A stretch of DNA of 64,000 bases from Clostridia bacterium (GCA_900763885.1 CAAFLY010000061.1:10553-74552), one strand, 5' to 3'. Positions 8,106 to 62,873 are shown, counted from the stretch's first letter. Notes: a model not told the origin generated them from the letters alone. Numbers and translations: made by a program.

Positions 8106-8128
8106 TTACCCATACGGAAAATTGCATG

Positions 8129-8236
8129 ACAGAGTAGATTTTCGGGCGTAAAGTGCCGGCAAAACGGGGAGTTGTTTGTCGGACGAAGGGGTGTGCGATA
8201 CGCATATGCCGCGGTCCGGATTTCGCATCCCGCTGT
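8129..8236 (+). promoter_or_regulatory. THF (tetrahydrofolate) riboswitch aptamer
   Basis: ACAGAGUAGAUUUUCGGGCGUAAAGUGCCGGC...GUCGGACGAAGGGG...GCCGCGGUCCGGAUUUCGCAUCCCGCUGU carries the THF-I cores (AGAGUAGAU, CGUaAAGUG, ACGAAG, GCGG, GCAUCC-GCU) and a closing P1 ACAGAG/CGCUGU. It lies upstream of folT, the classical target. Confidence 0.8.
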
Positions 8237-8283
8237 ACATAGGAAAGCATCCCACAAATGGCGGTGCTTTCACGAAAAAGACA

Positions 8284-8462: not shown

Positions 8463-9050
8463 ATGAACGCAAAAACCAAATCGTATGCCCGTGTCCGCAA
8501 AATCTGTGTCGCCGCCATGATGATCGCCGCGGAGGTGGTGCTGAACCGCTTCTGTTCCATCAAAACCGCCGGCTGGAACATCGGGTTCTCCTTTGTACCC
8601 GTGGTTCTGACCGCGATGCTCTATGGTCCCGGGATGGCGGCTGTCGTCGGCGGCCTGGCGGACTTCATCGGCGCGATCCTATTCCCGATCGGCGTGTACC
8701 ATCCGGGCTTCACGATCATCGCCGCATTCATGGGCTTCAACGACGGGATCTTTCTCCATGGCACGGATGTCCATTGGCAGATAGGGCAGAGCGAAATGCG
8801 CTTTGCCGTCCGCTGGAATAAGATTAGCTTCTGGCAGATGCTCATCCCGACGTTATGGAACCATCTCGTCCTCGGGCTGTGCGTCAACACGGCGTGGGTC
8901 AGCATGCTCTACGGCTCCAAAACCTACTGGGGCTGGTTTGTCTACAGACTTCCGCAGCAGGCAATCATGATCCCGGTGACGATGCTCCTTCTCCCGGTGC
9001 TTTGCCGGATCGCCGCACTGGTACGGCCGCGGCTGACGGGTGAGAGATAA
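8463..9050 (+). CDS. folT: folate ECF transporter S component
   Basis: A 195-aa polytopic membrane protein (KICVAAMMIAAEVVLNRF...FSFVPVVLTAMLYGP) resembling the FolT family, with a GGGAGGAAAAG RBS. It sits directly behind the THF riboswitch and ahead of folC. Confidence 0.8.
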   Translation: MNAKTKSYARVRKICVAAMMIAAEVVLNRFCSIKTAGWNIGFSFVPVVLTAMLYGPGMAAVVGGLADFIGAILFPIGVYHPGFTIIAAFMGFNDGIFLHGTDVHWQIGQSEMRFAVRWNKISFWQMLIPTLWNHLVLGLCVNTAWVSMLYGSKTYWGWFVYRLPQQAIMIPVTMLLLPVLCRIAALVRPRLTGER

Positions 9051-9096: not shown

Positions 9097-10398
9097 ATGC
9101 AGTATGAGGAAGCGATGCAGTATATCCACCGGATCAGCTGGACGGGCAGCCGTCCGGGACTGACGCGGATCGAGGAGCTGTGCGCAAAATTGGGCCATCC
9201 CGAGCGGACGTTGCAGTACATACACGTGGTCGGCACAAACGGGAAGGGATCCTTCTGCCGGATGCTGTCCGCGGTACTGACTGCCGCCGGATACAAAACG
9301 GGGCTGTTCACCTCCCCCTACATCGAAACGTTCAACGAGCGGATGCAGATCGACGGGGAGAATATCGGAAACGATGAGCTTGCCGCGATCACCGGAGAGG
9401 TCAAGCCGTTCGCGGACACCATGGCGGATCCCCCAACGGAATTTGAACTGATCACTGCGGTCGGATTCGAGTATTTCCGCCGGAATCGGTGCGACATTGT
9501 GGTGCTGGAGGCGGGACTGGGCGGCAGACTGGATTCCACAAACGTGATCCCGTCGCCGGAGCTGGTCGTCATCACTGGCATCGACTATGACCACATGGCG
9601 ATCCTCGGCGATACGCTGACGAAAATCGCGGCGGAAAAGGCGGGGGTCATCAAGCCGAAGACGACCGTGCTCTTTGGTGAAGGCGCGCCGGAAGCGGAAT
9701 CTGTGATCCGGGAAACGACGGAGCAAATCTGCGGCAAAAGCGCGTATCATCGCACGGACTACAGCCGGATTGAGCGTCCCGCCACCTCCCTCGACGGCAC
9801 TACGTTCTCGTTCGCGCCGTTTGGGAAGCTGCGCCTGTCCATGCTCGGGATGTATCAGCTTCGCAACGCGGCAAACGTTCTGACCGCCATCGAGCTGCTG
9901 CGGAACAAGGGCTACGCAATCCCGGACGAAGCGGTGCGGCAGGGACTTGCGGGTGCCGAATGGAAGGCACGGTTTGAGATCCTGTCCCGCGATCCGCTCG
10001 TTTTGTACGACGGCGCGCACAATCCACAGGGAATCGCCGCGGCAGAGGAAAACATCCGCCGGTATCTCGCGCCGCTGACGCGATCCGGCAAGGTGGAGCT
10101 ATTGATGGGCGTGCTTGCCGACAAGGACTACCGCGCGATGATCCACGCCGTATCGCCCTATGCCGCGCACGTCGTGACGATCACCCCCACCAGTCCGCGC
10201 GCGCTGGACGCCGCCATGACCGCCGCGATCTTCCGGGAAAACGGCGTGGAGGCGGTTTCGGCGGGATCGGTGGCGGAGGGAGTGCGCCTTGCGGTGGAAG
10301 CTGCCCGAAAAGAAAAGATGCCGCTCTTCATCTTAGGCTCGCTGTATCTGTACGGAGACGTGAAAAAGGCACTTGCCGCAATCCCCGATCTGGCGTAA
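9097..10398 (+). CDS. folC: bifunctional folylpolyglutamate synthase/dihydrofolate synthase
   Basis: HVVGTNGKGS P-loop with the Mur-ligase-like central and C-terminal regions typical of FolC. Confidence 0.9.
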   Translation: MQYEEAMQYIHRISWTGSRPGLTRIEELCAKLGHPERTLQYIHVVGTNGKGSFCRMLSAVLTAAGYKTGLFTSPYIETFNERMQIDGENIGNDELAAITGEVKPFADTMADPPTEFELITAVGFEYFRRNRCDIVVLEAGLGGRLDSTNVIPSPELVVITGIDYDHMAILGDTLTKIAAEKAGVIKPKTTVLFGEGAPEAESVIRETTEQICGKSAYHRTDYSRIERPATSLDGTTFSFAPFGKLRLSMLGMYQLRNAANVLTAIELLRNKGYAIPDEAVRQGLAGAEWKARFEILSRDPLVLYDGAHNPQGIAAAEENIRRYLAPLTRSGKVELLMGVLADKDYRAMIHAVSPYAAHVVTITPTSPRALDAAMTAAIFRENGVEAVSAGSVAEGVRLAVEAARKEKMPLFILGSLYLYGDVKKALAAIPDLA

Positions 10399-12391: not shown

Positions 12392-13132
12392 TTATTCGAC
12401 GCCAAGCGCATCCACCGCGGAGAGCACCTCCCCCACCTTGTCCCGCATCACCAGCGTGGCGAGAGCATCCATAGGGGTTTCGTCCCGGTTGATCAGCACG
12501 AGTCGATTGCCGCCGTAGAAGCGGAGCAGTCCCGCTGCCGGATAGACGGTCAGAGAGGTGCCGGCGACAAGGAGCAGATCGGCATTCCGGATGGCATCGA
12601 TGGCTCCCTCCACCGTTTCGTCGGACAGGCCTTCCTCATACAGCACCACGTCCGGACGGATCACGCCGCCGCAGGAGCAGCGCGGTACCGGATCGGAGCT
12701 GTCAAAGATCGCCTCCGCCGGATACGGCTTGCCGCAGTCCATGCAGTAGTTGCGGTAAATCGAGCCGTGCAGCTCCCAGACCGTGCGGGATCCGGCTTTG
12801 GTGTGGAGTCCGTCTATGTTTTGCGTCACCACCGCGGATACCCTGCCCGTTTTTTCCCATTTCGCGAGCGTGCGGTGCGCCGGATTGGGATTTGCGGCAA
12901 GGCAGTTCATCTTGTCCCGGTAGAAGCGATAGAATTGTGCGGGATGAGCAAGAAAATATGAGTGCGAGAGGATCACCTCCGGCGGCACATCATATTTCTG
13001 TTGGTACAGTCCGTCCGCGGAGCGAAAATCCGGAATGCCCGATTCCGTCGACACCCCTGCGCCGCCAAAGAATACCACGTGCCGCGCCTTTTGTACATAC
13101 GACCGCAGGAGTAAAACCTGTGTCTGATCCAT
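12392..13132 (-). CDS. cobB: NAD-dependent protein deacylase (Sir2/CobB sirtuin)
   Basis: Start MDQTQVLLL with a GGGGAGG RBS. Contains GAGVSTESGIPDFRS, QNIDGLH and the zinc ribbon CxxC...CxxC (CMDCG...CSCGG). Confidence 0.85.
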   Translation of the reverse strand: MDQTQVLLLRSYVQKARHVVFFGGAGVSTESGIPDFRSADGLYQQKYDVPPEVILSHSYFLAHPAQFYRFYRDKMNCLAANPNPAHRTLAKWEKTGRVSAVVTQNIDGLHTKAGSRTVWELHGSIYRNYCMDCGKPYPAEAIFDSSDPVPRCSCGGVIRPDVVLYEEGLSDETVEGAIDAIRNADLLLVAGTSLTVYPAAGLLRFYGGNRLVLINRDETPMDALATLVMRDKVGEVLSAVDALGVE

Positions 13133-28579: not shown

Positions 28580-30862
28580 TCACTTCCGCAGCTCCACTCT
28601 GCGGATCTTACCGGAGATCGTTTTCGGCAGCTCCGGCAAAAATTCCACGATGCGCGGGTATTTGTAGGGCGCTGTATGCTCCTTGACGTAGGTCTGGATC
28701 TCCTTTTTCAGCGCGTCCGAACCTTCCTTACCCTTGACAAGCACAATGGACGCCTTGACGACCTGTCCGCGGATCGGATCGGGAACGGCGGTGATGGCGC
28801 ATTCCAGCACATACGGCAGCTCCATGATCACGGATTCGATCTCAAACGGCCCGATGCGATAGCCGGAGGACTTGATCACATCGTCGATCCGTCCGACATA
28901 CCAGAAATAGCCGTCCTCATCGCGCCATGCCGTGTCGCCGGTGTGGTAATAACCGTCGTGCCATACCTTCTTCGTCGCTTCCTCATCGTGGTAGTAGCCG
29001 AGGAACAGACCGCACGGCACGCCTTCCTTCGTCCGCACCACGATCTCGCCCGTTTCACCGACGTCGCAGGAGCGTCCGTCCGCGTCCACGATATCCACAT
29101 CGTACATGGGCGACGGATGGCCCATCGAGCCCGGCTTCGGCGTGTCTCCGACAAAGTTGCCGATGGTGAGCGTGGTCTCCGTCTGACCGAAGCCCTCCAT
29201 CAGCGACAGGCCCGTATATTCGCGGAACTTGTAGAACACCTCCGGATTGAGCGCTTCTCCGGCGATGGTGGCATGCTTCAGCGAGGACAGATCGTAGTTT
29301 TCGAGATGCTCCTTGATGAAGAAGCGGAACATGGTCGGCGGCGCGCAGAAGGTCGTGATGTGGTACCGGGCAAAGAGCGGCAGCAGATCGTGCGCGTCGA
29401 ATTTGTCAAAGTCATACGCAAACACGCAGCTTTCGCAGAGCCACTGGCCGTACAGCTTGCCCCAGAGCGCCTTGCCCCAGCCGGTATCGGAGATCGTGAA
29501 GTGGATCCCCTCCGGATCGACGTTGTGCCAGTACCGGGCGGTGATATAGTGGCCGAGCGCGTATTTGAAGCTGTGTGCCGCGACCTTCGGGTATCCCGTT
29601 GTACCGGAGGTGAAGAGCATGTACATCGGTTTGTCGCCGCAGACGTCCACACGTCTTTCCCAGGTATCGGGATAGTTCATAAACTCCGTGTCGAAGGAGT
29701 GCCAGCCGTCGCGCTCCCCGTGCGAGATCATCTTGATGAGACCCGGATCGACCGCGGCTGCCGCGTTTTCGGCGTGCATGGCGGTTTCCCCATCGGCGGT
29801 GCAGACAATGGCGCGCACATCGGCGGCCTTGTAGCGGTAGGCGAAATCCTTTTCCACGAGCATGAATGTGGCAGGGATCGCGACCGCGCCGAGCTTATGG
29901 AGTGCCAGAGAGGCGATCCAGAACTGCCAGTGCCGCTTCAGCACGAGCATAACGGTATCCCCCTCGCGGATGCCGAGCGACACGAAATAGTTTGCCGCGC
30001 GGTTGGAGAGCAGAGACAGCTCGCGGAAGGTGAACAGAGTCTCGTTCTTTTCGCGGTCGAGGTGTAAAAGCGCGAGCTTGTCGGGGCATTTTGCGGCAAG
30101 AGCGTCCACAACATCGTAGGCAAAGTTGAACTTGTCCGCGTCGTGGAAGCGGATTTCCTTGAGTTTTCCGTTTTCCTCCACGCATTCGACGAATTTCGCG
30201 GCGACCGGATCCTTCGGCAGAGGCGAGAGGGTGTTGTATTTGACCTCGGGCAGGACAGGGGTTTCCAGATTCTCCGGATAATCGTACGCCGCCGCTCCGC
30301 TTGCGATGATGACAGCGAGGAACCGGCACTCTTCACCGTCCACGGCGATCATACCGTGCGGCTTGGAGCTGTCGTAATAGATGGAGTCGCCCGGTTCCAG
30401 GATCTCCTCATGGCCGTCGATCACGGTTTTCAGTCTGCCGGAGAGGATATAGTCGAATTCATGGCCCTCGTGACGGCTCAGCTTGATCGGTGCGTGCTGC
30501 TCCTCCAGCGAGAAGGGCGCGGTGACGACAAAGGGCTCAACGGTCTTGTTCTTGAACAGCGGCGCCAGGTTTTCATAACGGAAGCCGCGCCGCCGTGCGA
30601 TCGGAAGTCCGCGGCCTGCCCGGGTGATGCTGTATTCCTCCAGCGTCGGACTTTCGCCCTTCAGGAGGTCGGTGGTATCCACGCCGAGCCTTGCAGCGCA
30701 CTTATAAATGAAGGTGAAAGTAAAATCCGTCTCCCCGGCCTCGAGGGTGCGATAATTTTCCAGCGACACGCCGGTGCACTGCGCCATTTCCGCCTCGGAG
30801 ATACCAAGGATCTCTCTCGACTCCCGAATACGGTGCGCGACTTCTTTGATGATCTTTTCCAT
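28580..30862 (-). CDS. three-domain fusion: XRE-type HTH + cupin + AMP-forming acyl-CoA synthetase (ACSM/medium-chain-like)
   Basis: Start MEKIIKEVAHRIRESREILGISEAEMAQCTGVSLENYRTLEAGE (HTH_XRE). Then a cupin (HEGHEFDYILSGRLKTVIDGHEEILEPGDSIYYDSSKPHG). Then an adenylate-forming enzyme (FTSGTTGYPK, YHTGD, SGYRIGPFEIES, PKTISGKIRR). The upstream 56 codons of the ORF overlap the T-box terminator. Confidence 0.85.
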   Translation of the reverse strand: MEKIIKEVAHRIRESREILGISEAEMAQCTGVSLENYRTLEAGETDFTFTFIYKCAARLGVDTTDLLKGESPTLEEYSITRAGRGLPIARRRGFRYENLAPLFKNKTVEPFVVTAPFSLEEQHAPIKLSRHEGHEFDYILSGRLKTVIDGHEEILEPGDSIYYDSSKPHGMIAVDGEECRFLAVIIASGAAAYDYPENLETPVLPEVKYNTLSPLPKDPVAAKFVECVEENGKLKEIRFHDADKFNFAYDVVDALAAKCPDKLALLHLDREKNETLFTFRELSLLSNRAANYFVSLGIREGDTVMLVLKRHWQFWIASLALHKLGAVAIPATFMLVEKDFAYRYKAADVRAIVCTADGETAMHAENAAAAVDPGLIKMISHGERDGWHSFDTEFMNYPDTWERRVDVCGDKPMYMLFTSGTTGYPKVAAHSFKYALGHYITARYWHNVDPEGIHFTISDTGWGKALWGKLYGQWLCESCVFAYDFDKFDAHDLLPLFARYHITTFCAPPTMFRFFIKEHLENYDLSSLKHATIAGEALNPEVFYKFREYTGLSLMEGFGQTETTLTIGNFVGDTPKPGSMGHPSPMYDVDIVDADGRSCDVGETGEIVVRTKEGVPCGLFLGYYHDEEATKKVWHDGYYHTGDTAWRDEDGYFWYVGRIDDVIKSSGYRIGPFEIESVIMELPYVLECAITAVPDPIRGQVVKASIVLVKGKEGSDALKKEIQTYVKEHTAPYKYPRIVEFLPELPKTISGKIRRVELRK

Positions 30863-30914
30863 GTGACAAGCTCCTGTTCTATATGGATTTTTGGACTGTC
30901 GGGGCTGTCTTTTG

Positions 30915-31200
30915 ACAAACAAAAAATCCGCCCCAAAATGCTTTGAGACGGATGATACATCCGCGGTACCACTCAAATTGCATCGTACAGCTGCGATGCC
31001 ACTCTGCGGGTTCAGACAAACCCTCTGCACTCACGCGGCAGCACACGGGGAACGATTACTCAGCGGATGATACGATCACGCCTTTCCTTTCCCGACTCGG
31101 AAGGGATAGAACCGCGTCTCACGATACCTGCATTCCACCACCGCAGGCTCTCTGGCTCGTGCATCAGACAGGATTCCGTCTTCGTCAACGTCTTTCTTTG
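30915..31200 (-). promoter_or_regulatory. T-box riboswitch leader (tRNA-sensing transcription attenuator)
   Basis: Minus strand. Stem I (31192-31094) has a K-turn-like base GAC-GUU-GA-CGAAG / CUUC-C-GA-GUC, an AGAGAG bulge and the CCUGC-GGUGGUGGAAU-GCAGG distal hairpin. T-box core AAUUUGAGUGGUACCGCGG (30980-30961). Antiterminator UUUGAG[UGGUACC]GCGGAU...AUCCGU-CUCAAA competes with terminator AUCCGUCUC/GGGGCGGAU + U6 (30953-30915). Confidence 0.85.
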
Positions 31201-31211
31201 GAAGTGCCTTT

Positions 31212-31240
31212 ATTATAGCACGACGGCTCCTCTTTGTCAA
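31212..31240 (-). promoter_or_regulatory. consensus sigma70 promoter for the T-box leader
   Basis: Minus strand: TTGACA (31240-31235), a 17-nt spacer, then TATAAT (31217-31212) with a TGc extension. Confidence 0.7.
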
Positions 31241-31332
31241 GTGTGCAAAACCGGAAGAAAATCGGTGCACTGCCCGGCAAAAATCGTGAAAAAACGACAG
31301 AGAGATTTTTCACTCTGATTTGCCCTCCCGTA

Positions 31333-31361
31333 TTGCAAAATGGCGCGGGATATGCTAAAAT
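31333..31361 (+). promoter_or_regulatory. candidate promoter for the GH38 operon
   Basis: TTGCAA (31333-31338), a 17-nt spacer, then TAAAAT (31356-31361). Confidence 0.45.
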
Positions 31362-31440
31362 GAAAACAGCGAACCCGGCGGCATACAAACAGACCATATC
31401 CCGCCGGAGACCACAGATATACAGATATAAGGAGAGAACC

Positions 31441-36285: not shown

Positions 36286-37587
36286 TCAGTCGATATTCGC
36301 AAGCACGCCTAAAAAGAGCGGCAGTCCCTCCGGCGTGAGGATCGCGTAGACAAACGGGCGGTCGAATACGATCTCCTTCGGCTCCTCCGGCATAAGGCTT
36401 GTGCATTCCATCACCGCGACCGTTACGGCGGCGGCTTCCGTTCCGCCCTCATCGGTGCGGATCTTTGCCTTCTGGAACATATCGGACACATACGCGCTGT
36501 TCCCGGTGCCGTCCTCGCCGATCCCGGTCAGCTCGGCTTCCGGGGAGAAGAGCGCGGACAGTCCCATATCGGACAGCACATCAAGGAGCGGGATGTCCGC
36601 GTCATACTCGAATTTCGGCAGGGATACGATCACCTTTTCCTGATTTTCGTTTGCCGTATCCCGTGCGGCGAGCAGTGTGTCGGCGGAGAGCGATCCGGCA
36701 AAATCGTACACGTCGCCATCCGGCAAAACCGCGACAAAGGTATAGCCGTTTTCGTAATTCTTGGTAAATCCAACGCCGCCGTCCACGGTGAAATAGCTGT
36801 ATTCCTTGGAATGCATAAAGGACGCGGTCGTGTCTCCGGAAAAACCGTGGAACGTGTCGGACGTGACCGACCATTCGTCATACGGAATCACCCATTTGCC
36901 GTTGAAGTATACCGTATTGGCAAGGACCGCGGCGGCGTCAGGGGTCAGTTCCTTTAAGGTTTCCGGAATCATGCCGTGGGTCGCGTCCGAGATCCATTTG
37001 TTGATCTCACCGACCGATTTCGCGTCCGCGAAGGAAAGCGGCGTGGACTGCGCGTCAAAGTACCGTTTCACCATGGCGGCGTATTCGTCGTGCAGCGTGA
37101 ATCCGACATTGCTGTTGAGCCAGATCCCGTTCGCGATCTCTGTGACCCTGGTGGCGGCAAGAGCTTCTTTCGCGGAGTAGAGACTGTCGTCAAGGGTGAG
37201 AAGGTCGTCGTATCCAAGCACATCGGACAGCGCGGCGGCTGTATCCCCGGCAGCACCGTTCGCGAGTACGGCCAAGAGATTGTAGACGGAATACGGGGAC
37301 AGCACGAGATTTTTTCCGTTCACAAGGGATTTGTGGAAGAGCTTCGTGGAAAAATCGTTCACACCCTGCAAAAACGCGGCGTCCAGGGCGACGGTCTGCG
37401 GATCTCTTCCTGCGGCAGGGAGGCTCTGCGTGTCGGGCTTAGCGTCTGCGGCAGGCTTGTCCGTATCCTTTGCTTCCGCGGCGGGATTGTCTGTGTCCGG
37501 CGTGTCCGATGGCACCGACGCGCAGCCGGCCAGGGTGAAAGAGACGAGCATCGCGGCAAGGATCCGGCGGAATAGCGTTTTTTTCAT
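36286..37587 (-). CDS. serpin-family protease inhibitor, lipoprotein
   Basis: Start MKKTLFRRILAAMLVSFTLAGC (lipobox). The serpin core includes NLVLSPYSVYNLLAVLANGAAGDT, NTVYFNGKW, the inhibitory-type hinge EGGTEAAAVT and C-terminal FDRPFVYAI. Confidence 0.85.
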   Translation of the reverse strand: MKKTLFRRILAAMLVSFTLAGCASVPSDTPDTDNPAAEAKDTDKPAADAKPDTQSLPAAGRDPQTVALDAAFLQGVNDFSTKLFHKSLVNGKNLVLSPYSVYNLLAVLANGAAGDTAAALSDVLGYDDLLTLDDSLYSAKEALAATRVTEIANGIWLNSNVGFTLHDEYAAMVKRYFDAQSTPLSFADAKSVGEINKWISDATHGMIPETLKELTPDAAAVLANTVYFNGKWVIPYDEWSVTSDTFHGFSGDTTASFMHSKEYSYFTVDGGVGFTKNYENGYTFVAVLPDGDVYDFAGSLSADTLLAARDTANENQEKVIVSLPKFEYDADIPLLDVLSDMGLSALFSPEAELTGIGEDGTGNSAYVSDMFQKAKIRTDEGGTEAAAVTVAVMECTSLMPEEPKEIVFDRPFVYAILTPEGLPLFLGVLANID

Positions 37588-50720: not shown

Positions 50721-52181
50721 ATGAACATGAAAAGGAATATTTCTATACTTCTTTTGATCGCTATGCTTCTTGTTACCGCTTGTTCCGGTAAACAGACAGA
50801 ACCCGCCGAGGATTCCGCGGTACAACCCAATGATCCGGCGCAGACAGATGTGGAAACCGAAACGGAACTGCGTGACAACGTACCGGACGGTGTGAAATTT
50901 GACGGTGCGTCCTTTGTGCTTTTGTCTCCGGATGAATACGGCGGACAGTGCCTGACCGAGGAGCAGACGGGCGACGTACTGAACGATGCCACGTATGCAA
51001 TGAAAAGCGCTGTGGAAGAACGACTTGGCGTACAAATCACAGAAGAATTGACGAAATTCTGGGAAATGCAGGGACATGTGGAAAAGCTCATCACCTCCGG
51101 CGACAATTCGTACAGCGCGGTGGAGATGATGGACCGTTTTGGATTTCCGCTTGTGCGGAAGCACTGTTTTTTGCCAATTTCCGATGTGCCCTATATCGAT
51201 TTGTTACGTGAATATTGGGGCAGCGGGCTGAGTGCCGATTTACAGATCAACGGTGAGCATTACTTTGCGGTCGGCTCGTTCAATCTCAAGGCGTTCACCA
51301 ATACCGCATGCACGCTTCTCAACCGTACACTTTGTGAAGCACATGGCGTAAGTGTGGACGATGAGACCATCGACAGCGGAGCTTGGACGTATGATACGCT
51401 TTATACCCTTGCGGAAGCGATATCGACGGACGCGAACGGTGACGGTGTAATGGATGAAAACGACATTTATGGCCTCGGTCATTATGATCTCCGATCCGCA
51501 CCTGCCATCGCGTGGATTGCCGGCGGATTCCGAACACTGGATAATGACACGGACGGAAAGCTCGCAGTGAATGTTTACGGCAATGAGCGGTTTGTTGACA
51601 TCCTGACCATGGTGCAGGACAAGCTGTTCTTTGGCGACGCGTGTTATAAGGTACAGGAAAGTGCGTCTGTATGGAACACAATGGATATCTTCAAGGACGG
51701 CAGAGAATGGGCCATGATCGGCGTGTTCAACGCGATTGTGGAAATGCGCGATATGGAGGACGATTTCACTGTGGTGCCCGTACCGAAGTTTGAGGAAAGC
51801 GCGGCGGAATACCGTTCCCGTACCTACGACTCGTATTTCACGCTTATCCCGACGACGGTACAGGATACGGAGATGGTCGGCGCGGTGCTGGAAGCCATGT
51901 CGTTTACCGCGTACCGGGACGTGATTCCGGCATACATCCAGACAACTCTGAAAGGAAAGGCGTCCCGCGATGAGATGGCGGCAAAGTATATTCAGCTTGC
52001 GTTTGACACACGGCACATCGATCTTGGCGAAGCGTTGATTTTTGACGTGTTCGGTGACCAATCTATGTTTGATATGCTGAAAAAACAGCCGCTTGGAATT
52101 GCCTCTTACCTTGAAAAGAAGCAAAAAACCATCGATAAAGCATTCTCGGAGATCGTAGCTCTGGCGGACGACGCGGAATGA
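50721..52181 (+). CDS. lipoprotein, probable orphan ABC solute-binding protein
   Basis: Start MNMKRNISILLLIAMLLVTACSGK (lipobox), 10 nt after the EEP stop. Size and pattern resemble large LplA-type sugar-binding lipoproteins. Assignment is tentative. Confidence 0.55.
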   Translation: MNMKRNISILLLIAMLLVTACSGKQTEPAEDSAVQPNDPAQTDVETETELRDNVPDGVKFDGASFVLLSPDEYGGQCLTEEQTGDVLNDATYAMKSAVEERLGVQITEELTKFWEMQGHVEKLITSGDNSYSAVEMMDRFGFPLVRKHCFLPISDVPYIDLLREYWGSGLSADLQINGEHYFAVGSFNLKAFTNTACTLLNRTLCEAHGVSVDDETIDSGAWTYDTLYTLAEAISTDANGDGVMDENDIYGLGHYDLRSAPAIAWIAGGFRTLDNDTDGKLAVNVYGNERFVDILTMVQDKLFFGDACYKVQESASVWNTMDIFKDGREWAMIGVFNAIVEMRDMEDDFTVVPVPKFEESAAEYRSRTYDSYFTLIPTTVQDTEMVGAVLEAMSFTAYRDVIPAYIQTTLKGKASRDEMAAKYIQLAFDTRHIDLGEALIFDVFGDQSMFDMLKKQPLGIASYLEKKQKTIDKAFSEIVALADDAE

Positions 52182-52198
52182 TTTCACCGAAACGAAAA

Positions 52199-52224
52199 AA
52201 GACTTTCCACGGGAGGTCTTTTTG
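52199..52224 (+). terminator. intrinsic terminator
   Basis: AAGAC..TCC pairs with GGA..GTCTT and is followed by TTTTT. Confidence 0.6.
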
Positions 52225-52283
52225 CGTTTGCACAGCGCGTATAAGACGACGGGATACGGCGCATAGTACAGAAATAACGAAAA

Positions 52284-52348
52284 TTTACCGTTTTACAGCG
52301 ATTTTACATATGCTCGCTTTCCGACTTTACCCCGGAATGGTATTCTAT
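52284..52348 (+). promoter_or_regulatory. candidate Pho-box array plus -10 element upstream of pstS
   Basis: Direct repeats TTTACC (52284), TTTACA (52292), TTTACA (52303) and TTTACC (52326), partly at 11-nt phasing, replace a -35 and precede TATTCT (about 52341). This resembles the Bacillus PhoP TT(A/T/C)ACA repeats. Confidence 0.45.
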
Positions 52349-52414
52349 AGGCGTACCAAGGAAAACAAACAACTATACATCCGGGACAGCGTTCCGGGAA
52401 AAGGAGTGAACTTT

Positions 52415-53218
52415 ATGAAAAAAGTATTTGCACTTGCTATGGCAGCTCTTTGTGTGATCGGGCTTTGCGCCTCCTGCGGTAAATCCGGCTCGAGCGTGTC
52501 CACGGATGGTTCGACCTCAATGGAAAAGGTGATCGGCGCGCTCGGCGAATCCTTTATGGCGCAGAACAGCAGCGTGACCTTTACCTACAACCCGACTGGC
52601 TCCGGCTCCGGTATCAAAGCGGTAGAAGCGGGAACCTGCGACATCGGACTTTCCAGCCGCAATCTGAAGGACGAGGAAAAGGCGGCGGGTCTGACCGGCA
52701 CTGTGCTTGCCTATGACGGCATCGCGATGATCGTCAGCAACGACAACCCGGTCGATGGTCTGACGCTCGACCAGGTGGCTGCCATTTACACCGGCGAGAT
52801 CACCAACTGGAGCGAGGTCGGCGGCAATGACGCGCAGATCGTCCTCATCGGCAGAGAGGCGGGCAGCGGTACGAGAGACGGCTTTGAGTCCATCACCGGA
52901 ACGGCGGAAAAATGCCAGTACAGACAGGAGTTGACCTCCACCGGCGACGTTATCACCACGGTCTCCCAGAACCCGGATGCCATCGGTTATGCCTCCCTCG
53001 CAGCGATCGGCGACAGCGTGCGTACCCTGAAAATCGACGGCGTAACGCCTACGGAGGAATCCGTCAAGTCCGGTGAATACGTCATCCAGCGTCCGTTCCT
53101 TCTTGTAACAAAGACGGGTGCGGCTCTCTCCGATACGGCACAGAAATTCTTCGACTACGTAACCTCCGCCCAAGCGGCGCCGATCATCCAGAAGGCCGGC
53201 GCGGTACCTGCAAACTGA
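52415..53218 (+). CDS. pstS: phosphate ABC transporter substrate-binding lipoprotein
   Basis: Lipobox LCASCGK, then GSTSMEKV...YNPTGSGSGIKAV...GREAGSGTRDGF, the PstS family pattern. AAAGGAG RBS. Confidence 0.9.
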   Translation: MKKVFALAMAALCVIGLCASCGKSGSSVSTDGSTSMEKVIGALGESFMAQNSSVTFTYNPTGSGSGIKAVEAGTCDIGLSSRNLKDEEKAAGLTGTVLAYDGIAMIVSNDNPVDGLTLDQVAAIYTGEITNWSEVGGNDAQIVLIGREAGSGTRDGFESITGTAEKCQYRQELTSTGDVITTVSQNPDAIGYASLAAIGDSVRTLKIDGVTPTEESVKSGEYVIQRPFLLVTKTGAALSDTAQKFFDYVTSAQAAPIIQKAGAVPAN

Positions 53219-53300
53219 ACAAAAGCATAAGCATGGCGCAGATACGGTTTATCCTGTGAAAAAACGGGATAAGCCATTTGCGCGCAGGAGGGAAAATCGT

Positions 53301-54170
53301 ATGCAGAAACGAAAACATCTACTGGAGAACGTGGTACACGGGATCTTTCTCATACTCGGACTCGTGACCGTCGGCTGTGTCCTGCTCATCACCGTCTATC
53401 TGGTTCTCTCCGGACTGCCGGCGATCCGCAAAATCGGGCTGCTCCCGTTTCTCTTTGGCAAAACGTGGGCGTCTACCGCGTCGGAGCCGTCCTTCGGGAT
53501 CCTGCCGTTCGTACTGACCAGCATCTACGGCACCGCGGGCGCGATCCTCATTGGTGTACCGATCGGCTTTCTCACGGCGGTTTATCTCGCGAAGCTGGCT
53601 CCACCGGCGGTCAAATCGGTCGTACAGGCGGCGGTCAGTATGCTTGCCGGGATTCCGTCCGTGGTCTACGGGCTTGTCGGTATGCTCATTTTGGTGCCTG
53701 GGATCCGCAGACTTTTCAACGTGCCGGACGGCGCCAGCCTTCTTGCGGCGATCGTGGTGCTGGCCATCATGATCCTGCCGTCTATCATCAAGGTATCCGT
53801 GACCGCGCTGGAAGCCGTGCCGAAGGAGTATGAGGATGCGTCCTTGGCTCTGGGCGCGACGCCGATGGAAACGTATTTCCGCGTATCCGTTCCGGCGGCA
53901 AGGAGCGGGATCGCAGCGGCGGTGGTGCTGGGTGTAGGTCGTGCGATCGGCGAGGCGATGGCGGTCATGATGGTCGCCGGAAACGCACCGAATATGCCGG
54001 GACTGTTCGAGAGCGTCCGGTTTCTGACCACGGCTGTCGCGAGTGAAATGTCGTATGCCGCCGGACTCCAGAGACAGGCGTTGTTCTCCATCGCGCTTGT
54101 GCTGTTCTTCTTCATTATGCTCATCAACGCCGCGCTCAATTTCTTCCTGAAACGGGAGGGGAAGCAATGA
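53301..54170 (+). CDS. pstC: phosphate ABC transporter permease PstC
   Basis: ATG at 53301 with an AGGAGGG RBS (the ORF opens at a GTG at 53256). Polytopic, with the EAA-type loop EDASLALGATPMETYFRVSVP. Confidence 0.9.
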   Translation: MQKRKHLLENVVHGIFLILGLVTVGCVLLITVYLVLSGLPAIRKIGLLPFLFGKTWASTASEPSFGILPFVLTSIYGTAGAILIGVPIGFLTAVYLAKLAPPAVKSVVQAAVSMLAGIPSVVYGLVGMLILVPGIRRLFNVPDGASLLAAIVVLAIMILPSIIKVSVTALEAVPKEYEDASLALGATPMETYFRVSVPAARSGIAAAVVLGVGRAIGEAMAVMMVAGNAPNMPGLFESVRFLTTAVASEMSYAAGLQRQALFSIALVLFFFIMLINAALNFFLKREGKQ

Positions 54171-55093
54171 TCGAAAACCGAAAAGTACCACTTGCCGCGC
54201 GTCGGGAAGAAAAACGGGCGACGAAGTCCTGCCTGTCGCAGCCTTTGTCCGTCCGCAGACGCGTGTTTGACATCCTCTGCAAATGCGGCATGGGGCTGTG
54301 CGTGACAGTCACGGTGGCTCTGACCGCGTTTCTGATCTTCTATGTGCTCCTCAAAGGACTGCCGGAGATCTCGTGGAAGCTCTTGTCTACCTCGCGGAGC
54401 TATCTCACGGACAGTATCGGCATTCTTCCGGACATTCTCTCCACGCTCTATATCGTCGTCACCACCATTCTGATCGTCGTGCCGCTCGGTGTGGGCGCCG
54501 CGGTCTATTTGACAGAGTACGCTTCCAACAAAAAGCTCGTCGCTGTGATCGAGTACGCGGCGGAGACGCTGTCCGGTATCCCATCGATCATCTATGGCCT
54601 GGTCGGTATGCTCTTTTTCTGCCAGTTTCTCCGGCTGGACAAATCGCTGCTCGCAGGTTCCCTGACGCTGGTGATCATGAATCTGCCGACCATCATGCGC
54701 ACGACACAGGAGAGCCTGAAAACGGTCCCGCAGAGCTACAGAGAGGGCGCGTTCGGATTGGGTGCCGGCAAATGGCGCGTGATCCGTACCGTGGTGCTGC
54801 CCGGATGCGTGGACGGTGTGATTACAGGCTGTATCCTGACGGTCGGACGGATCCTCGGCGAATCGGCTGCGCTGCTGTTCACCGCGGGCTTTGCGCATAC
54901 CTTATACGGCTTCTTCGACGGTATGGCAAACTCCGGCGCGACATTGACCGTGGCACTCTACTTTTACGCCAAAGAGGACGGTCGGTTTGACATCGCATTC
55001 GCCATTGCCGCCATTCTCATGCTTCTGACCCTCATTATCAATTTCGCCGCCGATCGGATCGCTGCGTATTTCAGGAGGAAAAAAGACCTATGA
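54167..55093 (+). CDS. pstA: phosphate ABC transporter permease PstA
   Basis: ATGA overlap with pstC. Loop [22 protein letters not shown]. Confidence 0.9.
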
Positions 55094-55845
55094 GCGACAT
55101 TCTCACCGTATCGGATCTCTGTCTGTGGTACGGAAGCCATCAGGCACTCAAAGATATAAACATCAACATTCCCGAAGAAAGCATCACCGCGCTCATCGGT
55201 CCGTCCGGGTGCGGAAAATCGACGTTTCTGAAAACCCTGAACCGCATGAACGACCTGATCCCCGGCGTGCGTATCACGGGCGAGGTCAAATACCGCGGCG
55301 AGGACATATTCGCGCCGAGCTGTGACGTTGGCGCATTGCGGAAACAGATCGGTATGGTGTTCCAGAAGCCGAATCCGTTCCCGATGAGCATCTACGACAA
55401 CATCGCCTACGGACCGCGCACCCATGGGGTCCGGAACAAGGTGGCTCTCGACGAGATTGTGGAAAAATCCCTCACCGGAGCTGCCATCTGGGACGAGGTC
55501 AAGGATCGTCTGCGCAAAAACGCACTGGGGTTATCCGGCGGTCAGCAGCAGCGGCTCTGTATCGCGCGTGCGCTGGCAGTCGAACCGGCGGTGCTGCTCA
55601 TGGACGAGCCGACCAGCGCGCTTGACCCGATTTCCACGGCGAAGATTGAGGAATTGACAATGACCCTCAAGGAAAAGTACACCATCGTGATCGTCACGCA
55701 CAATATGCAGCAGGCGGTGCGTATTTCGGACAACACGGCGTTCTTCCTGCTGGGAGAGCTGGTGGAATACGGCGACACGGAGAAAATGTTCTCGACTCCG
55801 ACAGACAAACGGACAGAGGAGTACATCACAGGGAGGTTTGGATAA
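55090..55845 (+). CDS. pstB: phosphate ABC transporter ATP-binding protein
   Basis: Walker [10 protein letters not shown], signature [14 protein letters not shown], Walker B LLMDEP, and the PstB-specific N-terminus. Confidence 0.95.
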
Positions 55846-56501
55846 TGCGGACACGGTTTGACGAACAGCTGGAGCTGCTGCATAGAGAGCTTATCGAAAT
55901 GGGGGCGTTGTGCGAGGAGGCGATCGCGCGTGTATCCCGTGCCCTGACTGAGGGAAACGCCGCGCTCTGTTCCTCCGTCCCCGCCATCGATGCGCAGATC
56001 GACGAAAAGGAACGTACCATCGAATCGATGTGCCTGCGCCTTCTTTTGCAGCAGCAGCCCGTTGCCAGAGATCTGCGGCAGATTTCGGCGGCACTCAAGA
56101 TGATCACGGACATGGAGCGCATTGGGGATCAGGCGGAGGACATTTCGGAGATCATCGTATTCTTAGGCGGTCGGTGCGATTCGGACGAAATCGGCGCGCT
56201 CCTTCGCGAAATGGCACTCGCTGCGATAAAAATGGTGACGGAAAGTGTTGACGCATACGTAAAACATGATATAATAGTAGCTGAGAAGGTCACGGCGGAT
56301 GACGACATTGTGGACGACTACTTCGATCGTGTCAAACGCAAGCTGATCGACAAGATTGCCTCCTCTCCGGCGGATGGGGAATACGCACTGGATCTTTTGA
56401 TGATCGCGAAATACTATGAGCGTATCGGAGACCACGCGGTGAACATTGCGGAGTGGGTGATCTTTTCTGTGACCGGCAATCATAAGGAGGAGACGACATG
56501 A
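55845..56501 (+). CDS. phoU: phosphate signalling regulator PhoU
   Basis: TAATG coupling to pstB. Two PhoU repeats, each with the ERIGD motif (DMERIGDQAEDI and YYERIGDHAVNI). Confidence 0.9.
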   Translation: MRTRFDEQLELLHRELIEMGALCEEAIARVSRALTEGNAALCSSVPAIDAQIDEKERTIESMCLRLLLQQQPVARDLRQISAALKMITDMERIGDQAEDISEIIVFLGGRCDSDEIGALLREMALAAIKMVTESVDAYVKHDIIVAEKVTADDDIVDDYFDRVKRKLIDKIASSPADGEYALDLLMIAKYYERIGDHAVNIAEWVIFSVTGNHKEETT

Positions 56502-57181
56502 TCTGGTGTGTGGAGGATGAGGAAAGCATCCGCGATATAGAGGAATATGCCCTGCGCAGTGCCGGATTTGAGACGCGCGGCTTTACGGACGGCAATACGT
56601 TCTGGGACGCGCTCCAAGGGGGGCAGACGGAGAAGCCACAGCTTGTGGTGCTCGATGTGATGCTCCCCGGCGTGGATGGGATCACGCTTTTGAAACGGAT
56701 CCGCGCCATGCCGTCTACGCGTCTTTTACCGGTGATCCTGGCGACGGCACGGGGGGCGGAGTACGACAAAATCGAGGGACTGGATCTCGGCGCGGATTAT
56801 TACTTAGCCAAACCGTTCGGCGTATTGGAGCTCGTTTCGTGCGTGAAGGCGGTGCTGCGTCGCTGCCAGCCGGAGACGGATGAGCATGTCCTGCACTGCG
56901 GCGGACTGGTGATGAACACGGATGCGCATACCGTGACCGCGGACGGCAGACGGGTGACGCTTACCTTCAAGGAATATGAGCTGCTGAAGCTTTTCCTCAG
57001 CCATCCTGGGATCGCCTATACGCGGGATCAGCTGATGAGCGAGGTCTGGGGTATGGATTTCTGCGGTGAAACGCGTACCGTGGATATGCACATCCGCACG
57101 CTCCGCCAGAAAATCGCGCCGTACAGCGATCGCATCGAGACGGTGCGCAATGTCGGTTATCGTCTGGAGGAGCGTCCATGA
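56498..57181 (+). CDS. phoP: OmpR-family response regulator (PhoP/PhoB-type)
   Basis: Receiver domain (LVVLDVMLPGVDG) plus a winged-helix output (LTFKEYELLKLF...RTVDMHIRTLRQKI). Operon context with pst and phoR. Confidence 0.85.
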   Translation: MIWCVEDEESIRDIEEYALRSAGFETRGFTDGNTFWDALQGGQTEKPQLVVLDVMLPGVDGITLLKRIRAMPSTRLLPVILATARGAEYDKIEGLDLGADYYLAKPFGVLELVSCVKAVLRRCQPETDEHVLHCGGLVMNTDAHTVTADGRRVTLTFKEYELLKLFLSHPGIAYTRDQLMSEVWGMDFCGETRTVDMHIRTLRQKIAPYSDRIETVRNVGYRLEERP

Positions 57182-58932
57182 GCGGCGGTGCGGATACGAA
57201 AAACAAACGGGAGAAAAATCTCAACCGCCGGATCTTCGGATCGATTCTGACCGTCGCGGTGGTGGTGCTGCTTGCCACTCTCGTGCTTGTAACCGGATTT
57301 CTCTACGACTATTTCACAGGCGTGCTGGAGCGGCAAATGCGGGACGAATGGGAGATCGCGGCGGCTGCCATTACGGAAAACGGGACGGCGTATCTCGACC
57401 GGCTGACCTCCACGCGGTATCGTCTGACGGTGGTCGCGGCGGATGGCAGTGTCCTTTGCGATACGCAGTCCGACGCGGAAGCAATGGAGAATCACGCCGA
57501 TCGGGAGGAAATCAGGAACGCGCTTGCCGGAGCGGAAGGGAAAACGGTCCGGTATTCGGCGACACGGTTGGAAAAGACGATCTATTACGCGCGCCGTCTG
57601 CCGGATGGAACGGTTTTGCGCATCTCCCAGAGTCAGGCGACCGTGGGAACACTGCTGCTTGGGATGCTCCCGCCGTTTCTCGCGATCCTGGTGGCGGCAC
57701 TCATCCTGTCGTTCGTGCTCGGCGGCAGACTCTCCCGGCGGATTGTGGAACCGCTCAACACACTGGATCTGGCGCACCCGCTCGACAACAACGCTTATGA
57801 AGAACTGTCTCCGCTGCTGCTGCGGATCGAGAGACAGCACAGACAGATCGACGCGCAAATGCGGGAACTGAAACGGCGCACAGATGAATTTTCACACATC
57901 ACCGCCAATCTGCACGAGGGGCTGGTGCTGCTCGACGCGCATACCCATGTCGTACACATCAACGCGGCGGCACGGACTCTCTTTGCGGTCGGCGAGGATT
58001 GCACCGGCGCGGATCTGCTGACCATCGACCGGACCCTTGCCATGCGGGAGGCGATTCGACAGGCACAGGACAATGCGGCGGGACACAGCGAATGGCAGGA
58101 AACCCGGAACGGACGGAGCTATCGGTTCACGATCAGCCGGATCGATTTCGATAGGGAATGCGCCGGATACGCGATTTTGGCGTTCGATGTCACGGACGCG
58201 GTACACGCGGAGGAAATGCGCCGGGAGTTTACAGCAAACGTGTCGCATGAGCTGAAAACGCCGCTGCAGGGGATTCTCGGCAGTGCGGAGCTGATCCAGA
58301 GCGGTATGGTCAAGCCGGAGGACACCGCGCGATTCGTCGGACACATCCACGAGGAAGCCACCCGCCTTCTCGCCCTCATCGGGGACATCATCCGTCTGTC
58401 CCAGCTTGATGAAGCGGCGGAGGACGGGGAGCTGGCCGGTATGACGCGGGAAAACGTGGATCTATGCGCGGTCAGTACGGAGGTGATTCGGGAGCTTACG
58501 GATGCGGCGGCAAAACGGAACGTAACCTTCACACTCTCCGGTGCATCCGTTGCGGTGTATGGGGTAAGACGGCTCGTGTATGAGGTGATCTACAACCTCT
58601 GCGACAACGCGATCCGCTACAATCGGGACAACGGCAGCATAACGGTTACGGTGTCGGCAGTGGACGGCATGGGTGTGGTGTCGGTAGCGGATACGGGGAT
58701 CGGCATCGCGCCGGAGAACCGGGATCGTATCTTCGAGCGGTTCTATCGCGTGGACAAAAGCCATTCCCGTGCGACAGGCGGCACCGGTTTGGGACTGTCG
58801 ATCGTCAAGCACGCCGTCCAGTATCTCCATGGGAAGATCGCGCTCGACTCGAAACCCGGCTCCGGCTCCACGTTCACGGTATCTTTGCCGCAATCGGACG
58901 CGGTAAGCCCGAATTTACAAAATCATGCTTGA
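57178..58932 (+). CDS. phoR: sensor histidine kinase (PhoR-type)
   Basis: Two TM segments, H-box FTANVSHELKTPL, N/G boxes (DNAIRY, DTGIGI, GGTGLGLSIVKH). ATGA overlap with the response regulator gene. Confidence 0.85.
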   Translation: MSGGADTKNKREKNLNRRIFGSILTVAVVVLLATLVLVTGFLYDYFTGVLERQMRDEWEIAAAAITENGTAYLDRLTSTRYRLTVVAADGSVLCDTQSDAEAMENHADREEIRNALAGAEGKTVRYSATRLEKTIYYARRLPDGTVLRISQSQATVGTLLLGMLPPFLAILVAALILSFVLGGRLSRRIVEPLNTLDLAHPLDNNAYEELSPLLLRIERQHRQIDAQMRELKRRTDEFSHITANLHEGLVLLDAHTHVVHINAAARTLFAVGEDCTGADLLTIDRTLAMREAIRQAQDNAAGHSEWQETRNGRSYRFTISRIDFDRECAGYAILAFDVTDAVHAEEMRREFTANVSHELKTPLQGILGSAELIQSGMVKPEDTARFVGHIHEEATRLLALIGDIIRLSQLDEAAEDGELAGMTRENVDLCAVSTEVIRELTDAAAKRNVTFTLSGASVAVYGVRRLVYEVIYNLCDNAIRYNRDNGSITVTVSAVDGMGVVSVADTGIGIAPENRDRIFERFYRVDKSHSRATGGTGLGLSIVKHAVQYLHGKIALDSKPGSGSTFTVSLPQSDAVSPNLQNHA

Positions 58933-62625: not shown

Positions 62626-62677
62626 TATATAGGCAGTCGAGGAAAGACAGAAGCAAGCATCTGATGCTGTGCCGTAT

Positions 62678-62763: not shown

Positions 62764-62795
62764 TGTTTCCTTCCTTCCAACGCTGAAAAGAATAT

Positions 62796-62873
<78 letters not shown>

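Follow-up and report, generated by a model that had tools for sequence, protein, structure and literature searches.

Since the 1960s it has been clear that anaerobes of the rumen and gut can use 2-methylbutyrate, isovalerate and isobutyrate as precursors of isoleucine, leucine and valine, and 2-methylbutyrate is abundant in both environments, but we know of no assignment of the enzymes that activate these branched acids in gut Firmicutes. In rumen anaerobes, branched-chain volatile fatty acids feed isoleucine and leucine synthesis (PMC10658910). Among characterized acyl-CoA synthetases, MacsMa adenylates C3-C8 acids and prefers 2-methylbutyrate, the substrate with which its CoA step is completed best, and pocket enlargement in medium-chain enzymes of this type has been attributed to a Trp-to-Gly change (PMC10455477). 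MbcS accepts 2-methylbutyrate and isobutyrate (PMC10026030) and allows branched-chain fatty-acid primers to be made from exogenous acids (PMC10026030, PMC11167679). T-box regulons serve almost wholly the supply of aminoacyl-tRNA, through tRNA ligases, amino-acid biosynthesis and transport (PMC2494555), and XRE-cupin transcription factors are well documented as repressing, locally, the enzyme genes next to them (PMC7901475).

The locus described here lies in a stretch of 64,000 nucleotides from a Clostridia bacterium (GCA_900763885.1 CAAFLY010000061.1:10553-74552), referred to here as the window, and all of its features are on the minus strand. A reading of this DNA from the sequence alone had proposed a chimera of a regulator and an enzyme, and its claim of a single continuous frame was confirmed: the 760-residue protein is encoded by one uninterrupted ORF (28580..30862, -), with its ATG at 30862 and its stop codon at 28580-28582, and more than 120 protein clusters share its architecture, with identities of 59-99%. 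A Shine-Dalgarno sequence, AGGAG, can be read directly 8 nt before the ATG (30871..30875, -). A longer, GTG-started ORF reaching 31030 was rejected, since it crosses the leader terminator and all homologues start at the position equivalent to MEKIIKEV.

Domain searches with Pfam models clearly supported three of the four expected matches, namely AMP-binding (residues 256-624, E 9e-60, 202.9 bits against a cutoff of 29.9), AMP-binding_C (674-752, E 2e-21, 76.9 against 24.5) and Cupin_2 (126-184, E 8e-15, 54.7 against 27.2), while HTH_3 (12-66) only just passed, with 23.8 bits against 23.0; HTH_19 (27.5 against 30.2) and HTH_31 (20.1 against 27) stayed below their gathering scores. The AlphaFold2 prediction begins with a five-helix bundle (residues 2-68, pLDDT 80-96) followed by a beta-barrel (107-187), which together with the Cupin_2 match upholds the cupin assignment. 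The protein can thus be divided into an acidic, five-helix XRE-like domain (residues 8-68; 30659..30841, -), delimited from HTH_3, the predicted structure and the analysis of charge and variability; a nearly invariant linker with the pattern GxSPTL ... GLPIxRRxGFxYxNLAPLFK (69-105; 30548..30658, -), whose pLDDT is low in the full-length model and 79-89 in the model of the N-terminal part; and the cupin barrel (106-187; 30302..30547, -), defined by the Cupin_2 match, conservation and an alignment with HppE. H131, E135 and H169 of the barrel are invariant and form a 2-His-1-Glu pattern, and Q134, D137, G158-D159, Y162-Y163 and D164-S165 are also conserved. A variable linker of low predicted confidence (188-219; 30206..30301, -) then leads to the large N-terminal (220-660; 28883..30205, -) and small C-terminal (661-760; 28583..28882, -) domains of the acyl-CoA synthetase. 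This variable linker is the exact division point of versions in which the protein is split between two genes.

The enzyme part is complete, as had been claimed. In addition to both Pfam domains, it carries the ANL motifs TSGTTGYPK (A3, 418-426), YHTGD (A7, 639-643) and PKTISGKIRR (A10, 746-755, with K752), and the A8 hinge GRxDDVIKSSGYRIGPFE, which reads GRIDDVIKSSGYRIGPFE in the window, at 657-674; all of these core motifs are intact, with no variation among 63 homologues. The best match in the PDB was 3ETC, the structure of MacsMa (Methanosarcina acetivorans MA4008), with 660 bits, an E-value of 4e-197 and 54% identity over 523 columns. G559, which precedes QTET, was taken, by reading the FGQTET motif, as the equivalent of the pocket residue Trp416 of Acs (AcsMt), so that, on this motif-based assignment, MacsMa and the window protein share a Gly in place of the Acs Trp. 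The Trp residues at positions 260, 277, 282 and 289 of the MacsMa chain are matched by W445, W462, W467 and W474, and, allowing for an offset between the 3ETC chain and the published numbering, the critical Trp259 of MacsMa is probably among these conserved residues. Unlike the window protein, MacsMa is archaeal and has neither an HTH-cupin module nor a T-box. Of the curated NCBIfam models, MbcS (NF047394) scored best, at 438.3 bits, a value below its equivalog cutoff of 850, and the PrpE and Acs models were far below it, with 184 bits for the propionate-CoA ligase model. The methylbutyryl-CoA synthetase of S. aureus differs from the window protein in being a single-module protein that serves the supply of lipid primers, and to our knowledge no T-box control has been described for it. 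The C-terminal 540 residues are best explained as a short branched-chain acyl-CoA synthetase of the MacsMa/MbcS type that is predicted to be active.

The leader of the gene points to the amino acid that its product may serve. Transcription would start from a sigma-70 promoter, TTGACA-17-TATAAT with a TG extension (31212..31240, -), which agrees with the consensus at 12/12 positions and has a strong counterpart upstream of nearly all homologous loci. It is followed by a T-box leader (30941..31197, -) consisting of stem I, stems II/III and the T-box antiterminator. The match to Rfam RF00230 covers the full model (1-219) with 70.2 bits and an E-value of 5e-15 and does not reach the gathering score of 93, so that the element is missed at the gathering threshold and detected at the E-value threshold; at the latter, no second T-box was found in the window. 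Stem I contains a K-turn, the AGAGA bulge, the GGUGGAA distal loop and a specifier loop, and all T-box hallmarks, including the UGGN bulge of the antiterminator and a competing terminator, are present and conserved in 65 homologous loci. The tRNA-dependent attenuation suggested by the sequence-only reading is therefore well supported by the E-value and by the full set of hallmark elements, although the score is below the gathering score. 65 of the 78 homologous loci are preceded by the motif TGGTACCGCG, and in all of these the UGGU of the T-box bulge (30968..30971, -), which pairs with the 3' ACCA end of the tRNA (discriminator base A), is invariant. The intrinsic terminator (30926..30953, -) has a 12-bp stem and a U-run, shares its 5' arm with the antiterminator and folds with an MFE of -29.1 kcal/mol (z = -2.9). 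The 13 loci that have no T-box form one Ruminococcus clade, and a check with RNAalifold for an alternative leader RNA in them gave no conserved pairs.

The specifier codon is AUC, for isoleucine (31105..31107, -), and it stands unpaired just 5' to the helix CUUC that closes the loop. Calling of specifiers by regular expression left 18 leaders unresolved, which were read by eye; AUC stands in the same register in 63 of the 64 readable leaders, those of two split operons included, and the lone exception (locus L077) has GUC, for valine, in the same register. The earlier reading had given neither an amino acid nor a substrate. In its stem I with K-turn, AGAGA and distal loop, its AUC specifier, its UGGUACC bulge and its terminator/antiterminator switch, the leader resembles the Ile T-box leaders of ileS and of ilv operons (RF00230). 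It differs from them in its Rfam score of 70, short of the gathering threshold of 93, in the residue after the specifier, which is C in the window and usually a purine elsewhere, and in the gene that it precedes, an acyl-CoA ligase and not a tRNA ligase, a biosynthetic operon or a transporter. Taken with the homology to MacsMa and MbcS, the isoleucine specifier makes 2-methylbutyrate the most likely substrate of the enzyme.

The reading we favor, and to which we would give an even chance of being right, is that the locus is a single-gene unit for salvage of an isoleucine precursor, with an HTH-cupin control module that does not bind DNA. Transcription from the strong promoter would normally end at the leader terminator, and uncharged tRNA-Ile, by pairing with the AUC specifier and the UGGU bulge, would stabilize the antiterminator and allow the gene to be read; this step follows the established T-box mechanism, the leader elements themselves being directly observed. 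The ligase would then convert 2-methylbutyrate to 2-methylbutyryl-CoA, which a 2-oxoacid:ferredoxin oxidoreductase could reductively carboxylate to 2-oxo-3-methylvalerate for transamination to isoleucine. This downstream route is drawn from classical rumen physiology and is not confirmed by the window, which contains no oxidoreductase or ilv genes. The valine specifier found in one species fits the same logic, by which a branched-chain acid is converted to a branched-chain amino acid. As for the N-terminal part, the cupin pocket (H131/E135/H169 together with the Arg/Tyr linker) may be the binding site for a small anionic pathway metabolite and may control adenylation or the use of CoA, and the acidic HTH-like domain could be an interface or oligomerization domain, as in HppE, so that the whole would be a ligand- or metal-binding control module and not a DNA-binding repressor.

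The same enzymology could have another purpose, with 2-methylbutyryl-CoA used mainly as an anteiso fatty-acid primer, as by the S. aureus enzyme, and with isoleucine shortage signaling a shortage of primer. We regard this as a tentative alternative of some weight, although on the improbable side. MbcS is the best NCBIfam model for the protein and is known to supply such primers from exogenous acids (PMC10026030, PMC11167679), but the score falls well short of the equivalog cutoff, and an almost exclusive dedication of T-box regulons to aminoacyl-tRNA supply (PMC2494555) argues for the amino acid. In any case, the primer and isoleucine-salvage fates are compatible and not mutually exclusive.

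A survey of the HTH-cupin-synthetase architecture showed it to be widespread, with the full-length fusion in at least 120 protein clusters and at least 80 species-representative genomes, carried by gut and rumen Oscillospiraceae/Ruminococcus and Acutalibacter; among the carriers, Neglectibacter timonensis SN17 (L014) is in culture. Stand-alone homologues of the HTH-cupin module also exist, and 5 of the 7 sampled are encoded directly upstream of an orthologous ACS gene, at spacings from overlap to 68 nt, the HTH-cupin gene coming first in these split operons; the other two do not adjoin an ACS gene. One fusion of the same pair in reverse order was found (P0243), and no neighboring gene is conserved among 80 loci. 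We read the HTH-cupin module as an obligate protein-level partner of the ligase, either fused to it in either order or encoded by an adjacent, often overlapping, gene. The pairing is widespread, and literature searches returned no published description of it and nothing specific on the fusion or on a T-box-controlled acyl-CoA ligase.

In trigger enzymes such as BirA, PutA, NadR and BzdR, a regulator-type domain covalently joined to an enzyme demonstrably binds DNA, and BirA is, in addition, adenylate-forming. By analogy, the N-terminal part of the window protein could be a true XRE-cupin repressor joined to its own target enzyme. As a dimer it would bind an operator at its own promoter or at others and, like BirA and PutA, bind or release DNA on detection of the acid substrate or the acyl-adenylate by the cupin. 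The HTH fold with its marginal HTH_3 match would suit such a role, and the closest overall superposition of the N-terminal model is with 1Y9Q, an annotated regulator (TM 0.69, against 0.5 for HppE). The module also shares its two-domain order and fold with the XRE-cupin factors PuuR and SutR of E. coli and PauR, PsdR and ErfA of Pseudomonas, and like them it is tied to neighboring metabolic enzyme genes. Since such factors repress adjacent enzyme genes locally (PMC7901475), the layout of the split operons, with the HTH-cupin gene first, also fits this paradigm, and some stand-alone copies do lie away from any ACS gene.

The indirect evidence, however, points away from DNA binding. The domain had been taken for a classic XRE HTH, but residues 8-67 carry a net charge of -4, equal to that of HppE, where PuuR has +3, SutR +4 and 1Y9Q +3; among homologues the charge ranges from -4 to -7, averaging -4.4 for fusions and -6.0 for stand-alone versions. 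Acidic residues are contributed by helix 2 (SEAEMA), which is also variable, by the first part of helix 3 (xLE) and by the loop after it (ETD). Most of the module hardly changes among orthologues, and its variability is highest on the exposed surface of helix 3, the recognition helix, at positions 34, 36, 38 and 39, while helix 4, the linker and the cupin pocket do not vary. Nor does the description of a complete PuuR/SutR-style regulator hold up well, since the PuuR equivalog model (NF007408) gives 23.1 bits against a cutoff of 211, from the cupin part only, and identity to the XRE-cupin factors is 18-19%. As far as the coupling of sensing to DNA binding could be tested, it found no support: neither some 60 promoters nor the 5'UTRs without a T-box contain a conserved palindrome, and there is no conserved neighboring target. 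The promoters have in common only the -35/-10 elements and an A/T-rich upstream stretch, with 'ATTTGAATATCAC' at the 5' end of the leader in those of one clade, and the only two inverted repeats of the window's intergenic region (31328-31407) are unconserved. What sets the module apart from the known factors is its link to one specific enzyme, through covalent fusion or translational coupling; the fusion exists in reverse order as well, and the gene is already under a dedicated T-box switch. The case for a DNA-binding regulator is thus weak and a trigger enzyme is unlikely; the module probably acts on the enzyme and not on DNA, net charge being an indirect argument.

Solved proteins with the HTH-cupin two-domain fold are mainly enzymes, namely HppE, HEPD and MPnS, and we know of no DNA role for their HTH-like domain. 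The module could likewise be, instead of a relic or a DNA-binding regulator, a second catalytic unit, in which an HppE-type metal-cupin domain would carry out a further reaction with the acid, the acyl-AMP/CoA or a keto-acid as substrate. The two reactions would be channeled, and the second would add a new step to the anaerobic conversion of branched short-chain acids to branched-chain amino acids. A profile built from the module aligns with HppE from end to end (E 1.6e-7), Foldseek returned HppE, 1Y9Q, HEPD and MPnS, along with Psf4, as top matches of the N-terminal model, and the module has the same parts as the phosphonate-pathway non-haem-iron enzymes HppE, Psf4, HEPD and MPnS, an HTH-like alpha domain and a cupin with a conserved linker. 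The invariant H131/E135/H169 align with H138/E142/H180 of HppE, and R91 and Y96 of the linker with its substrate-binding R97 and Y102; the equal charge of the alpha domain and the fusion or tight coupling to an enzyme in both orders would also agree with catalysis. However, PuuR, a sensor, retains the same H/E/H pattern, so that the triad does not separate a sensor, an enzyme and a transcription factor. Identity to HppE is only about 21%, the predicted domain arrangement differs (rmsd ~13 A), and the window module is found fused to an ANL enzyme in anaerobes, outside any phosphonate context. The strictly anaerobic life of the hosts makes oxygenase or peroxidase chemistry improbable, and the conversion of 2-methylbutyrate to isoleucine needs no additional reaction. 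We therefore consider a bifunctional enzyme quite doubtful.

The isoleucine T-box would also be compatible with propionate as the substrate, since propionyl-CoA could be reductively carboxylated to 2-oxobutyrate and enter the normal ilv route to isoleucine, and propionate falls within the C3-C8 range that MacsMa adenylates (PMC10455477). The propionate-CoA ligase model nevertheless scores 184 bits against 438 for MbcS, the CoA step of MacsMa proceeds best with 2-methylbutyrate (PMC10455477), and the valine specifier of L077 fits a branched-chain acid instead, all of which leaves propionate a very unlikely choice. Finally, an assembly or frameshift artefact joining two separate genes, for which the split two-gene versions of other organisms might speak, is effectively refuted by the identical 760-residue protein on 4 independent contigs and by the uninterrupted fusion in more than 120 clusters and 80 genomes.

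These results advise caution in annotation, as not every protein with HTH_3 and Cupin_2 domains should be annotated as a transcription factor. The obligate pairing of a ligase with an acidic HTH-cupin module points to an undescribed form of control or assistance of an ANL enzyme, and control of such a ligase by a T-box would extend the T-box regulon to an acyl-CoA ligase of precursor salvage. For the gut and rumen anaerobes that carry it, the MacsMa/MbcS-like ligase, preceded by its Ile-specific T-box, offers a concrete and testable candidate gene in at least 80 species-level genomes.

The 760-aa protein coded on the reverse strand at 28580-30862 (-) consists of 760 uninterrupted codons from an ATG at 30862, which in our sequence reading is preceded by AGGAG, and Pfam finds four modules in it, confirming that a single ORF joins a regulator-like module to an acyl-CoA synthetase (ACS). 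The domain scan suggested by the sequence-only reading matched AMP-binding (residues 256-624, E 9e-60), AMP-binding_C (residues 674-752, E 2e-21) and Cupin_2 (residues 126-184, E 8e-15), while the XRE-type HTH was marginal (HTH_3, 23.8 bits against a cutoff of 23; HTH_19 under its cutoff). Every catalytic motif named in that reading was found and is invariant among homologues. AlphaFold2 predicts a five-helix bundle followed by a beta-barrel, a low-confidence linker (residues 190-205) and an ANL enzyme with its usual two domains, with a mean pLDDT of 81.8 for the full-length protein and 88.8 for residues 1-195. The fusion is genuine and widely distributed. Four independent metagenome contigs code for an identical protein (the window itself being ENA ERZ1744014 NODE_99), and the architecture is full length in at least 120 clusters and at least 80 species-representative loci. 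The best 120 clusters of a 5.8-billion-protein collection all share the four domains, align to 97-100% of the query and are 64-99% identical to it; they are named only 'AMP-binding protein', 'cupin domain-containing protein' or 'acetyl-CoA synthetase'. The best 80 loci in species-representative genomes (59-82% identity) come from Oscillospiraceae, Ruminococcus, Acutalibacter, Neglectibacter timonensis SN17 and many human, chicken and ruminant gut MAGs.

Attenuation of this gene by tRNA, as previously proposed, was upheld. A promoter matching the consensus at 12/12 positions (31240-31212 (-)) is followed by a T-box leader (30941-31197 (-); Rfam E 5e-15, 70.2 bits, which is under the gathering score of 93) and a terminator with a 12-bp stem and a U-run, whose 5' arm is shared with an antiterminator bearing a UGGUACC bulge. 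The specifier AUC (31107-31105 (-)) lies in an internal loop directly 5' of the closing CUUC helix, and UGGU implies a discriminator base A, which fits tRNA-Ile. The T-box core TGGTACCGCG occurs within 250 nt upstream of the fusion in 65 of the 78 loci having upstream DNA, and the specifier register reads AUC in 63 of 64 readable leaders. The only exception, upstream of 2621 in L077 (MAG Clostridia RGIG5585), has GUC (Val) in the same register, which possibly reflects a shift to valine salvage from isobutyrate. The remaining 13 loci, from one Ruminococcus clade, have no T-box but a short 5'UTR, in which no conserved RNA structure was found. In this clade a consensus promoter lies upstream of the gene (L029, L030, L037, L039, L056, L062, L063, L065-L068, L076), TATGTAAGC is conserved ~6 nt past the -10 element, and so is the RBS context (GAAAGGAGnAGGCTTGCTATG). 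In ~30 loci among L020-L070, AAATTTGAATATCAC is conserved at the leader 5' end, between the -10 element and T-box stem I, and many loci carry the A/T-rich AAAATTTTTCAAAAAA just 5' of the -35 element, perhaps resembling an UP element or a CodY box; the window has neither.

A second RNA element, a THF riboswitch (8128-8237 (+), 75 bits), lies 5' of ORFs 8463-9050 and 9097-10398 (+), coding for an ECF-transporter S component and a Mur-ligase/FolC-like protein, probably a folate uptake and polyglutamylation operon. The window also holds a serpin gene (433 aa, Pfam Serpin; 36286-37587 (-)), here in a gut Clostridia contig, a phosphate-regulon block (52178-58932 (+); PstS-like binding protein, PstB-like ABC ATPase, PhoU, PhoB-like response regulator and PhoR-like histidine kinase) and, at its end, a tRNA-Leu(UAA) and tRNA-Met(CAU) pair (62677-62873 (+)).

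The closest solved relative of the ACS part is MacsMa of Methanosarcina acetivorans (PDB 3ETC; 54% identity, E 4e-197), for which 2-methylbutyrate is the preferred acid and the only one carried properly through the CoA step (PMC10455477). In the alignment, every MacsMa Trp in the stretch holding (probably) Trp259 is kept, and from the FGQTET motif we read G559 as the Gly that takes the place of the Acs pocket Trp in MacsMa-type enzymes. The methylbutyryl-CoA synthetase of S. aureus, MbcS, is the top curated family at 438 bits, short of its equivalog cutoff (850); models for acetate and propionate ligases score far lower. Together with the isoleucine specifier, this homology points to 2-methylbutyrate as the substrate. 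Reductive carboxylation of a branched-chain acyl-CoA towards an amino acid is a classical route. Rumen anaerobes are known to derive isoleucine and leucine from branched-chain volatile fatty acids (PMC10658910). Neither oxidoreductase nor ilv genes were found within the 64-kb window. A Sir2-family deacetylase gene is located 16 kb from the ligase (12392-13132 (-)). Since sirtuins restore activity to acyl-CoA synthetases acetylated at the A10 lysine, K752 could conceivably be under such acetylation control.

A search with residues 1-215 retrieved 686 cluster representatives (E < 1e-10), many of them stand-alone proteins of ~185 aa with 35-60% identity to the query. Five of the seven stand-alone HTH-cupins looked up have an orthologous ACS gene directly downstream (545-570 aa, 54-61% identity to residues 220-760), at spacings from overlap to 68 nt, and the split point is exactly the variable linker of the fusion. 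An Ile (AUC) T-box is present in two of these split operons as well, and a 269-aa fragment (P0243) has the reversed order, ACS C-terminus then HTH-cupin. No other gene is conserved beside the fusion in the 80 loci, and its two halves evolve at equal rates. A partnership at the protein level is indicated by the two fusion orders, by fission that keeps translational coupling, and by these equal rates. Elsewhere in the family, a 401-aa protein (P0245) joins a cytidylate kinase to an HTH-cupin of the same acidic type, and in L095 (3800-4000) a direct tandem repeat of ~70 nt (GGTATGGTGTAAAAGTTTGAAAATAAATCTGCGTGAGTGCGGAAAACGAAACTTTAAGTGGCAC...) lies directly 5' of a split operon without a T-box.

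Our reading is that the HTH-cupin probably controls the ligase, as a module that binds a ligand or a metal. A catalytic role remains a rival, since the family profile matches HppE, a non-haem-iron enzyme of phosphonate pathways, along its full length (E 1.6e-7). H131/E135/H169 align with H138/E142/H180 of HppE, which we take to be its iron ligands, and R91 and Y96 align with R97 and Y102 in its linker. The profile also matches 1Y9Q, a PDB entry annotated as regulator (E 2e-9); Foldseek ranks HppE, 1Y9Q and the phosphonate enzymes Psf4, HEPD and MPnS on top, and the predicted module superposes better on 1Y9Q (TM 0.69) than on HppE (TM 0.5). The triad is kept in PuuR too and therefore does not tell a sensor from an enzyme.

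DNA binding is the other remaining rival, and XRE-cupin transcription factors that repress adjacent metabolic genes via palindromic operators, leaving DNA on metabolite sensing, are a real paradigm (PMC7901475). However, over HTH residues 8-67 the net charge is -4 in the window protein, -4.4 on average in 63 fusions (range -7 to -2) and -6.0 in 148 stand-alone relatives, against +3 in E. coli PuuR, +4 in SutR and +3 in 1Y9Q; the HppE alpha domain has -4. Helix 2 has SEAEMA in place of the SQRRAA of PuuR, helix 3 begins with acidic xLE/xEE, and ETD-F replaces the basic or proline loop past it. Nowhere does the module vary more than at the exposed helix-3 positions 34, 36, 38 and 39, whereas hardly any change is seen in helix 4 (DFTFTFIYKCA), the linker (GLPIxRRxGFxYxN...K) or the cupin pocket. 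A comparison of ~60 promoters of homologous loci revealed no conserved palindrome. The window intergenic region before the ORF, divergent from a GH38 alpha-mannosidase gene, has two inverted repeats only, CCGGCGGCATA/TATCCCGCCGG (31375-31407) and a TTGCAA-centred palindrome (31328-31343). Taken together, these features argue that the module is unlike DNA-binding XRE-cupin regulators. The proposal of a PuuR/SutR-style N-terminus is not supported by these indirect features, and of two stacked control layers the RNA layer stands while the DNA layer is unlikely; the system is probably not the two-layer DNA/RNA regulator first envisaged.

The promoter, isoleucine T-box, terminator, intact ANL motifs and conserved HTH-cupin partnership are established here. 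From what is known of T-boxes, uncharged tRNA-Ile would allow read-through of the leader. Homology and regulation suggest that the ligase would then activate 2-methylbutyrate to 2-methylbutyryl-CoA, to be converted to isoleucine by reductive carboxylation and transamination; the CoA ester may double as an anteiso-lipid primer. More tentatively, the cupin might bind an anionic pathway metabolite and gate the ligase, which would spare ATP and CoA pools. Our literature search found no description of the HTH-cupin-ACS architecture or of a T-box-controlled acyl-CoA ligase; the components all belong to known kinds, and together they make up an uncharacterised variant. The fusion gene is a plausible candidate for a step long known in gut and rumen metabolism, with an unexplained accessory module.
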